NCBI RefSeq assembly: GCF_054482595.1
Contig: NZ_JBTHVH010000004.1
DNA: 64,000 nt
Direction: 5' to 3' (one strand)
Origin: a plasmid
Each line of letters opens with the position of its first letter. Positions within the stretch are counted from its first letter, which is position 1. The position numbers are program-made. Shown here one piece after another: positions 21,001 through 24,000 of the stretch.

Positions 21001-24000
21001 TTCCGTGTTCGCCATGAGGGTCTCAATCCTTTTAACTATCTTATTGATGGGCTGGAAAGGTTTTCGCATCACAGCGAATCTAGTAACTCACTGGAATCGA
21101 CTGATGTATCTCACCAATACGATGAAATTAGCCGGTTAAATGTTCACCATGCACTTCATGCTTCTGGTTTAGTTCCTCAGGATGTTCACCTCTTTGTTAC
21201 TTTACCTCTTAGCCAGTTCTATACTGCTTTAGGGGAAACGAATATTGAAAATATTCAGAGAAAAAAAGATAACCTGATGAAACCAGTTGAGCGTTATCTT
21301 GACGGTAAACGCTATTCTTTCAACGTTTTGTCTGTGACTGTTTTCCCTGAATCTTTACCAGCTGTGACCCGGGCAGATGAAATTGAGGATATTGCTTCAT
21401 TTGAATCAAGTTTGGTAATTGATCTTGGTGGTACTACTCTTGATGTTGCAAGTATTACTGGGCAATTAGAACAGATTTCGAAAGTAAAAGGTTTTGACCG
21501 TATTGGTTGTTCTATTGTTTACGATGAGATCAGCAGGTATCTTGAATCTGAGAAACTGAATACGAGTAATGCTTACATTCATCATCTTGTTGATAATCGT
21601 CATGATAAATCAGCTTTGAAGGTTGCAGAGGACAAGCGTGACGGTGTTTTTGATGCGGTAAACTCTGCGGTACAGAAGTTGCAAAGTAAAGTAATCAGAG
21701 CGGTTACACAAGTCGAAGAGAGGCCTCATAATGTTTTCCTTGTTGGGGGAGGTTCATATCTCATCGAAACAGCTATTCGTAAACATTTTGAAACGGCTAA
21801 AGTTATCATGGTAGACAATCCGCAGTTCGCATTATCTTTGGCAATTGCTGATACTATTTATTCAGAATAATGAGCTAGAACATGGCTAAAAACCCTATCT
21901 CAAATAAGGCAGATAACGACCGGATTCAGATCCGGTCTTTCTGGATATCCGAAAGAAAAGCACCCTATGTTTATAGTTTCTTGAAAAAAACAGAACTTTC
22001 TCATAGGGGTGACCAACTGGATTTAATTAGGTCGGCTATTAGTACCGGGTTGGTATTGAATAATTTATTTCCTGACTTGGCAAATTTTATAAATGGTTTA
22101 AACGAAAGATTAACACTTGCAGATCTTAATAGGTTTCTGAATGATGGAAATACTATAGATACTGAACCTAAGCCTCCTATTAATGTATTGCTAGAGAATG
22201 TCTTAGATCAAAAGTTTAAGGAGTATTTAACACCTCTACAATTAGATAATTCAAAGCAGGATTCTGTTTCTGTAAAAGAAACCTTCCTTGTACAAAAGGA
22301 ACATGCCTGCTTTGGTGTGAAGATTGAAAATGAGGGAAGCGATACCTCTATACCATCTGAAAGCCCACTTTCTTCAGATGCATCCAAAATTTCAAAAGAA
22401 AAGTCCATTTCCGCTGTGGTGCCAGTGCTAGAAAAAGTATCGGATGAAAATCAAACCGCCTGGATTTGCCCCTATATTTCCAGACACCTGTTATCACTTA
22501 ACCCATTACTGGCTTGCTGCCGTAGATATTCCCGTGGCGAGCGATAACCCAGTGCACTATGCGGATGCCATTCGTTATAATGCTCGAATGCCTCTGCAAG
22601 GTTCTTTGCTGCCGTTAACCCGTCTGGTTTGGGCATGACACTGATGTAGTCACGCTTTATCGTTTTCACGAAGCTCTCTGCTATGCCGTTACTCTCCGGA
22701 CTCCGCACCGCCGTGTTCTTCGGTTCAAGCCCCAACATCCGGGCAAACTGCCGTGTTTCATTAGCCCGGTAGCATGAACCATTATCCGTCAGCCACTCTA
22801 CTGGAGACGCCGGAAGCTCGTTGCCGAAACGGCGTTCCACCGCTCCCAGCATGACGTCCTGTACTGTTTCACTGTTGAAGCCGCCCGTAGTGACCGCCCA
22901 GTGCAGTGCCTCACGGTCACAGCAGTCCAGCGCGAACGTGACTCGCAGTTTTTCTCCGTTATCACAGCGGAACTCGAACCCGTCAGAGCACCATCGCTGA
23001 TTACTTTCTTTCACAGCCACTCTGCCGGTATGTGCCCGTTTCGATGGCGGTACAGCGGGTTTTCGCTCAAGCAACAGCGCATTCTGGCGCATGATCCGGT
23101 AAATACGTTTGGCATTGATCGCAGGCATACCATCAAGTTCGGCCTGTCTGCGAAGCAGCGCCCATACCCGACGATAACCATATGTGGGCAGCTCTCCGAT
23201 AACATGGTGTATACGGAGAAGCACATCCGTATCATCTGAGTGACGGCTGCGGCGACCATCTTTCCAGTCATCGGTTCGTCTGAGAATGACGTGCAACTGC
23301 GCACGCGACACCCGGAGACAACGGCTGACTAAGCTTACTCCCCATCCCCGGGCAATAAGGGCGCGTGCGCTATCCACTTTTTTGCACGCCCGTATTCAAC
23401 GGCTTCTTTAAGGAGTTCATTTTCCATCGTTTTTTTGCCGAGCAGGCGCTGGAGTTCTTTAATCTGCTTCATGGCGGCAGCAAGTTCAGAGGCAGGAACG
23501 ACCTGTTCTCCTGCGGCCACAGCAGTAAGACTTCCCTCCTGGTATTGCTTGCGCCAGAGAAATAACTGGCTGGCTGCCACACCGTGTTGCCGGGCAACAA
23601 GGGAGACTGTCATTCCCGGTTCAAAACTCTGCTGAACAATAGCGATCTTTTCCTGTGTAGTACGCCGTCTGCGTTTCTCCGGTCCTAAGACATCAATCAT
23701 CTGCTCTCCAATGACTAGTCTAAAAACTAGTATTAAGACTATCACTTAAATAAGTGATATTGGTTGTCTGGAGATTCAGGGGGCCAGTCTACCGCCTCCA
23801 TAAGCATAAAATCTAAAGCTAAGGCAAACAAGCGACTGGCAACTTTGGCAAGATAGGTGAGAGACAGTACAATCGACTTCTGAGTTCCAACTTGTCTTAC
23901 CAGGAAAGCCAGCATACTTGCTGGCCTTTTTTTTGTTATAATAATTTCAGGCTTCACCTGGGTATGTAAAATTACTGTTAATGAAACGGTATTTTAGGTT

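Follow-up and report, generated by a model that had tools for sequence, protein, structure and literature searches.

Does an IncHI2 plasmid that carries two partition systems lose one of them when a transposable element takes the end of an adaptor gene? This question is raised by a 64,000-nt stretch of plasmid DNA (hereafter the window; RefSeq assembly GCF_054482595.1, contig NZ_JBTHVH010000004.1), which stems from an mcr-1-bearing IncHI2 plasmid and in which a complete copy of the insertion sequence (IS) IS2 interrupts parR, the gene immediately downstream of parM. We consider it likely that the insertion removed the tail by which the adaptor ParR couples to the motor ParM, leaving ParMR null for segregation and the plasmid on ParAB alone. 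The features of the locus are given below, with open reading frames (ORFs) measured in amino acids (aa).

20833–21870, plus strand: parM, intact; 345 aa, actin-like ATPase of the type II partition module
21882–22460, plus strand: native part of parR, codons 1–193; conserved N-terminal domain (residues 1–87) and a variable middle that is predicted to be disordered
21882–22547, plus strand: chimeric parR ORF, 221 aa (193 native and 28 IS2-encoded); TAA stop at 22545–22547
22456–22460: left copy of the target-site duplication, CCGCC, read from the sequence
22461–23791, minus strand (transposase genes): complete IS2, 1331 bp, with the right inverted repeat at 22461 and the left at 23791
22472–23377, minus strand: IS2 orfB (TnpB/InsD), 301 aa; NCBIfam NF006918, Pfam rve and HTH_21
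23335–23700, minus strand: IS2 orfA (TnpA/InsC), 121 aa from the ATG at 23700; NCBIfam NF006928
23792–23796: right copy of the target-site duplication, CCGCC, read from the sequence
23797–23856, plus strand: displaced 3' end of parR, codons 194–212 (SISIKSKAKANKRLATLAR) and TAG stop at 23854–23856; conserved C-terminal motif

The identity of the element as IS2 is no chance match. Its left and right boundaries read TGGATTTGCCCC... and ...GGGGGCCAGTCTA, its imperfect terminal inverted repeats of 41/42 nt align with one gap, and both of its proteins exceed the cutoffs of their NCBIfam models, with 275.8 bits over 229 for orfA (‘IS2 repressor TnpA’, NF006928) and 709.7 bits over 597 for orfB (‘IS2 transposase TnpB’, NF006918). 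The A6G −1 frameshift site (AAAAAAG, 23383–23377 on the minus strand), at which orfA and orfB overlap, is intact. Several Escherichia coli chromosomal copies are identical to the element over 1331/1331 positions, and 4059 of 5426 complete E. coli genomes contain an IS2 copy of at least 80% full length; the 64-kb window holds one. On our reading this IS2, complete and probably active, entered parR by transposition, and its most likely source is an E. coli host. The insertion site follows from the coordinates: (22461 − 21882)/3 = 193.0, so that the native sequence (codons 1–193) ends with codon 193 and IS sequence takes over at codon 194. Removal of IS2 with one copy of the duplication yields a 212-aa parR product ending in SISIKSKAKANKRLATLAR, and the reconstructed empty site (a 1065-nt query) shows zero mismatches to NZ_MW025965.1, where parR is IS-free and annotated as WP_001107537.1. 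The parR gene of R478 is likewise an IS-free 212-aa allele (WP_001107538.1). The preliminary description of this DNA had placed a 1331-bp IS2 with a CCGCC duplication at 22461–23791 in codon 194, had found the native C-terminus legible beyond it (23797–23856) and had proposed that 28 IS-encoded residues stand in for this tail. All three points are borne out by the coordinates, the reconstruction and the 221-aa ORF, and the comparison with IS-free IncHI2 references that it suggested as a check is the one given above.

The exact IS2/parR junction was found in 0 of 72,556 PLSDB plasmids and 0 of 5,426 complete E. coli genomes. As it is absent from all records searched, the allele is new and private, albeit of a known kind, namely the truncation of a known gene by IS2. 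Such uniqueness could also point to an assembly artefact, with the real plasmid carrying an intact parR. This is highly improbable, however: the element has its full length and two intact ends and is flanked by a perfect 5-bp target duplication, its excision restores the reference gene exactly, and misassembly makes no target-site duplications.

Is the interrupted gene indeed parR? Its upstream neighbour (20833–21870) is a bona fide ParM, with Pfam matches to StbA_N (PF06406) at 224 bits and ParM_N (PF21523) at 204 bits. The AlphaFold model reaches a predicted local distance difference test (pLDDT) score of ~90 across the ParM part, and its best PDB matches are the R1 ParM entries 4a61, 1mwk and 4a62 (template modelling (TM) scores of 0.82–0.89 at 30% identity, with 4a61 at TM 0.89). 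The family of ParR itself comprises 23 clusters in a search of 5.8 billion proteins and 15 representatives in an exhaustive HMMER scan of 1.84 billion proteins; a search for related loci, seeded by the ParR alignment A1, provided 9 loci. All ParR relatives examined are encoded 16–20 bp downstream of a ParM gene, even at 20–25% identity (the gap is 11 bp in the window), and they share an IncH-type synteny of metallophosphoesterase, parM, parR, htdA-like genes and an rsp-like giant gene. Moreover, the R27-type (IncHI1) homologue, 225 aa in length and 38–40% identical, carries the name ParR in a public source, and the IncHI2 literature refers to the gene as parR or parMR (PMC9599605; PMC5955447). 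Judged by homology and synteny the interrupted gene is thus an IncHI-type parR, which substantiates the earlier label of a ParR-like partner of ParM. The AlphaFold monomer of ParR, at pLDDT 47 too poor for a fold search, has helices at residues 28–36 and 45–62 that are compatible with a ribbon-helix-helix fold but no strand called, and no such fold could be assigned to the N-terminal domain.

Two observations on the family should be added. In an IncH-like lineage represented by contigs of Pantoea alvi and Pseudocitrobacter vendiensis (L023/L024, positions 1919–3654), ParM is 80% and ParR 37% identical to the proteins of the window (56% in the N-terminal domain of ParR). On these alignments the adaptor ParR evolves much faster there than the motor ParM, except at its two ends. 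Short parR ORFs of 44–56 aa also exist in public assemblies (clusters P0028–P0030), frameshifted just past ...FLKK; in the IncHI2-type cluster P0030 the frameshift falls at an A7 run contained in parR codons 35–37 (21985–21991 in the window). These short ORFs could be true frameshift alleles or homopolymer sequencing errors.

What, then, was lost with the 3' end? In the ParR alignments A1 and A2, residues 1–87 are strongly conserved, residues ~90–190 are unalignable and predicted to be disordered, and the extreme C-terminus is conserved again. There, a K/R-rich stretch leads into N-x-x-L-x-x-L-A/S-R/K; this motif persists down to 20–30% identity, with L210 invariant across the family. The 19-residue tail is the sole conserved segment past residue ~90, and precisely this motif is what IS2 takes away. 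ParR of R1 uses its last 17 residues to bind ParM between subdomains IA and IIA (PDB 4A62; PMC3794156), in agreement with the R1 paradigm invoked in the preliminary description. Because an AlphaFold2 fusion of ParM with the natural ParR linker and tail did not dock the tail (a helix at ParR 201–211 with pLDDT 40–50, not confidently placed), we infer the contact from this analogy: the conserved ParR tail would bind ParM as in R1. ParR homologues, which MAFFT placed over ParM, were left out of the alignment for the fusion model, and the tail had no alignment depth.

The course of events that we regard as likely is the following. The interrupted gene is the last of the parM–parR operon, which encodes the minor of the plasmid's two partition systems, the actin-type (type II) one. 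The N-terminal domain, presumed to bind DNA and to act as an autorepressor, and the disordered linker are still made, probably with DNA binding and repression retained, and the conserved basic, amphipathic tail is swapped for 28 unrelated residues. If the tail corresponds to the peptide with which ParR of R1 ParMRC captures ParM filaments at their growing end, its removal means that the chimeric ParR would stay on the plasmid with no coupling to ParM. ParMR would then be null for segregation, and the plasmid would depend on its intact type I system, ParAB. An uncoupling of the type II system had been proposed from the outset; the loss of the tail, its conservation and the R1 precedent speak for it, but the tail stayed undocked in the fusion model.

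Can ParAB carry the plasmid? In the window parAB is intact. For R27, Par1 (parA/parB) is reported to be the major and Par2 (parM/parR) the minor stability determinant (PMC4489591; PMC12317039), and in IncHI2, too, the major partition system is reported to be ParAB; R27 Par2 is also described as functional. The dependence on parAB put forward in the preliminary description thus holds as far as parAB is intact and reported to be the major determinant, but the loss of ParMR function on which it builds is itself conditional.

Several points weigh against a loss of coupling. ParR of the window has no Pfam or NCBIfam match at E ≤ 1, and its profile search of the PDB returned chance matches alone. 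Its profile comparison with R1 ParR in hhalign aligned only 28 columns (residues 38–65 with R1 28–55) at a probability of 7.9%; the R1 ParR query was 100% identical to plasmid proteins annotated as stbB or as plasmid partitioning/stability protein. The pLDDT of the tail in the fusion model (40–50) is no higher than that of the tail in ParR alone (54–60). The 28 new IS-encoded residues might by chance keep some function. The major/minor ranking of the R27 modules comes from secondary citations. Finally, an R1-like, iteron-type centromere (parC) was sought upstream of parM, both in the window and in the divergent loci, and not found.

Which sequences could ParR recognize instead? The region in question is:

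20470–20832, no strand: intergenic region upstream of parM, 31% GC

It contains a promoter-like site, composed of TTGATA (20763–20768), a 17-nt spacer and TATAAA (20786–20791). This is overlapped by an imperfect inverted repeat, TAATAGGTCACCATTA / TAATATGGTCCTATTA (20767–20782 / 20801–20816), which from its sequence and position is a candidate operator or centromere. Upstream of parM the divergent loci loosely share a ATNTGGTNC-like half-site, observed as TAATATGGTCC and TAATGGTGACC in the window (20767–20816), as TTAAATGGTACA in locus L025 (1683–1751) and as AAATATTGGTCC in locus L028 (1688–1739). The half-sites form inverted or direct pairs, unlike the iterons of R1, and could represent a ParR operator or centromere.

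Is the IS2 allele exceptional among IncHI2 plasmids? A parR census was performed on 60 evenly spaced rows out of 1,127 PLSDB IncHI2 records, using the 1,065-bp query. parR was truncated or deleted in 16 of the 60 sampled rows, and some IS-associated breakpoint fell within the query in 31. About a quarter of PLSDB IncHI2 plasmids carry a truncated or deleted parR, and for this reason the IS2 allele is not special; the recurrent, module-specific loss of type II partition is more notable than the allele itself. We found no description of such a recurrent loss of IncHI2 ParMR in the searchable literature. Breakpoints were mapped onto the reconstructed empty site, so that all positions are window-equivalent:

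upstream of parM: IS3-family (IS2-sized), NZ_MW025965.1
upstream of parM: IS903B, NZ_CP119735.1
parM codon 32: ISVsa5, NZ_CP057358.1
parM codon 159: IS3, CP083532.1
parM codon 249: IS3-family, NZ_OU015329.1
parM codon 220 through parR and terminator: ISKpn26-linked deletion, 68 records
parR codons ~97, 109 and ~133: ISKpn26, three separate events
parR codon 162: IS1, NZ_OQ078085.1
parR codon 168: IS903B, ~195 records, at least six genera
parR codon 193/194: IS2, the window
parR codon 200: IS1, pEC17-NDM-5
at the parR stop codon: IS903B, ~200 records (estimate from the spread sample)
in the terminator: IS4, NZ_CP128610.1
just past the terminator: ISApl1, NZ_CP091557.1

At least 14 independent IS events of eight IS types (IS1, IS2/IS3-family, IS3, IS4, ISVsa5, IS903B, ISKpn26 and ISApl1) lie within the 3.4 kb between 20550 and 23937. 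The IS903B allele at codon 168 is found in PLSDB in Enterobacter, Klebsiella, Citrobacter, Leclercia, E. coli and Salmonella, and also occurs in Pseudocitrobacter and Atlantibacter genomes.

Plasmids with damaged parMR persist and spread, so that the practical cost of the damage is small. In a first alternative, the IS2 insertion is functionally silent, either because ParMR adds nothing measurable in enteric hosts or because the tail is not needed, and the IS2 allele reflects neutral decay of a redundant module. It is favoured by the fact that in roughly a quarter of the IncHI2 records in PLSDB either parR is not intact or the whole 3' end of the module is missing, yet these plasmids are spread over many genera and countries; the reported minor role of Par2 and the undocked tail of the AlphaFold fusion point in the same direction. 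Still, we regard a silent insertion as unlikely. The tail motif is conserved across the family down to 20–30% identity and ParM remains 80% identical where ParR has fallen to 37%, which argues for long-term selection on a working ParM–ParR pair; the description of R27 Par2 as functional is likewise at odds with it.

Conversely, the loss may be more than tolerated. In a second alternative, ParMR is costly or interferes with ParABS and its loss is positively selected, IS2 being one convergent adaptive knock-out among several; parR truncations would keep the repressor domain, and parM would not be derepressed. To judge the clustering of events, the 5,011 bp just upstream of parMR (parA, parB and four further genes) served as a control block. 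Of the 60 sampled rows, 58 held this block without any interruption, and it was covered to at least 80% in 1,117 of 1,128 records (~99%), with about one IS event in the 60-record spread sample, compared to the at least 14 events in the parMR zone. The sole record sampled with an IS inside the block is NZ_AP025900.1 (record positions 15452–21687), which carries ISSen4. Base composition was considered as a cause of the clustering and rejected, as the GC content of parAB and parMR is alike (0.36–0.39); that the events involve such diverse IS families speaks against a hotspot defined by target sequence. Moreover, all seven mapped parR insertions fall at codon 97 or later, past the conserved N-terminal domain (p ~0.015 if insertions are taken to be uniformly distributed, a value based on only seven events and subject to ascertainment issues). 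However, the same pattern would result if selection were relaxed on parMR and purifying on its neighbours, some of the events lie in parM or in its upstream region, frameshifted parR ORFs ending at codon ~36 exist (although these may be homopolymer errors), and we found no fitness data on parMR-null plasmids. Positive selection thus appears a rather doubtful explanation, and the loss of coupling through removal of the ParR tail remains the reading that we prefer for the window.

Does the insertion affect the genes on the far side of parR? Here the end of the operon matters:

23908–23934, plus strand: intrinsic terminator of the parMR operon, stem at 23908–23925 (GCCAGCA-TACT-TGCTGGC) followed by T8; now downstream of IS2

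The terminator had been noted at 23906–23935 in the preliminary description, and both its stem and its T run were recovered. Rightward transcription leaving IS2 would meet this terminator before reaching htdA, and outward transcription from IS2 as a driver of htdA was rejected on this ground and since this end of the element has no outward-facing promoter-like site. It had also been proposed that the element separates parMR from the genes at the htd position. IS2 does intervene, but with no obvious consequence: the native terminator already divides the two units, which leaves the separation with little weight, and other plasmids are interrupted between the parR stop codon and htdA by IS903B, IS4 or ISApl1.

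The position of the module leads to a third alternative, namely that the main effect of the insertion would be on conjugation rather than stability. The ParM and ParR proteins of R1 stimulate relaxase activity and enhance transfer (PMC4949242), parMR is located in the Tra2 region between parAB and the htdA-rsp-trh transfer genes, and an IS between parR and htdA has been suggested to impair transfer of p505108-MDR (PMC5955447). By this analogy an effect on transfer is conceivable, but we consider it quite improbable as the main one: most records with disrupted parR are predicted to be conjugative in PLSDB (a prediction only), and transfer of the plasmid in the window may already suffer from an IS1 in rsp.

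This second element is a complete IS1 of 768 bp (29571–30338) that interrupts rsp, the gene of an IncHI conjugal-transfer immunoglobulin (Ig)-like protein, and is flanked by the 9-bp duplication CAAGTTCTC at 29562–29570 and 30339–30347. The reference product comprises 1434 aa; here, a 1260-aa ORF (25810–29592) and a 188-aa remnant ORF (30325–30891) are found. RSP is reported to be required for IncHI conjugation (PMC6764697), and the plasmid may therefore be transfer-impaired. Elsewhere in the window, a 2.6-kb insertion at ~59808–62405 relative to pXDL-CTX-M-14 brings in mcr-1 and its PAP2 partner, with no ISApl1 adjacent to mcr-1 within the inserted segment:

59987–61612: mcr-1, NCBIfam MCR-1 at 1302.7 bits (cutoff 1100)
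61660–62406: PAP2 partner of mcr-1

In summary, an mcr-1-bearing IncHI2 replicon probably segregates by ParAB alone, and anti-plasmid or stability studies should target ParAB. Of the two partition systems of IncHI2 plasmids, the survey shows the type II module to be the expendable one, parAB being almost never broken, and this natural pattern of loss agrees with the genetics of R27. It also makes testable whether a redundant actin-type segregation system is merely dispensable or actually costly. In the unlikely event that the loss is selected, a second partition machine would be costly or in conflict with ParABS, and its loss favoured rather than just tolerated.

How does the locus compare to known systems? 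With R1 ParMRC it shares the parM–parR operon order, the model of its ParM superposes best on R1 ParM, and both adaptors end in a short basic, amphipathic segment (...ETKKNAMKLIN in R1, ...KAKANKRLATLAR in IncHI2). In contrast, IncHI ParR is with 212 aa almost twice as long as the 117-aa R1 protein and has a ~100-residue variable linker, it shows no detectable sequence relationship to R1 ParR past the low-probability match of 28 columns, and there is no array of 11-bp iterons upstream of IncHI2 parM. Compared to classical insertion mutations by IS2, a member of the IS3 family, the element has the same 1331 bp, imperfect inverted repeats and orfA/orfB A6G frameshift, and the same 5-bp target duplication and gene truncation; the mechanism is identical, and the interest lies in the target gene alone. 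The closest counterpart in the survey is the IS903B::parR allele of R478-like plasmids (e.g. pFJMB80178_1, NZ_AP025888.1), in which the tail is likewise lost and parM and the ParR N-terminal domain are kept. There, the IS lies in the 3' third of parR at codon 168 with a 9-bp duplication, leaves a 170-aa product and marks a widespread lineage, whereas the IS2 allele, with its 5-bp duplication at codon 193/194, occurs in no other record searched. R27 (IncHI1), lastly, has a Par2 of the same protein family at 38–40% identity and likewise carries its two partition modules within Tra2; there, neither module is damaged, whereas the Par2 adaptor of the window is without its tail.

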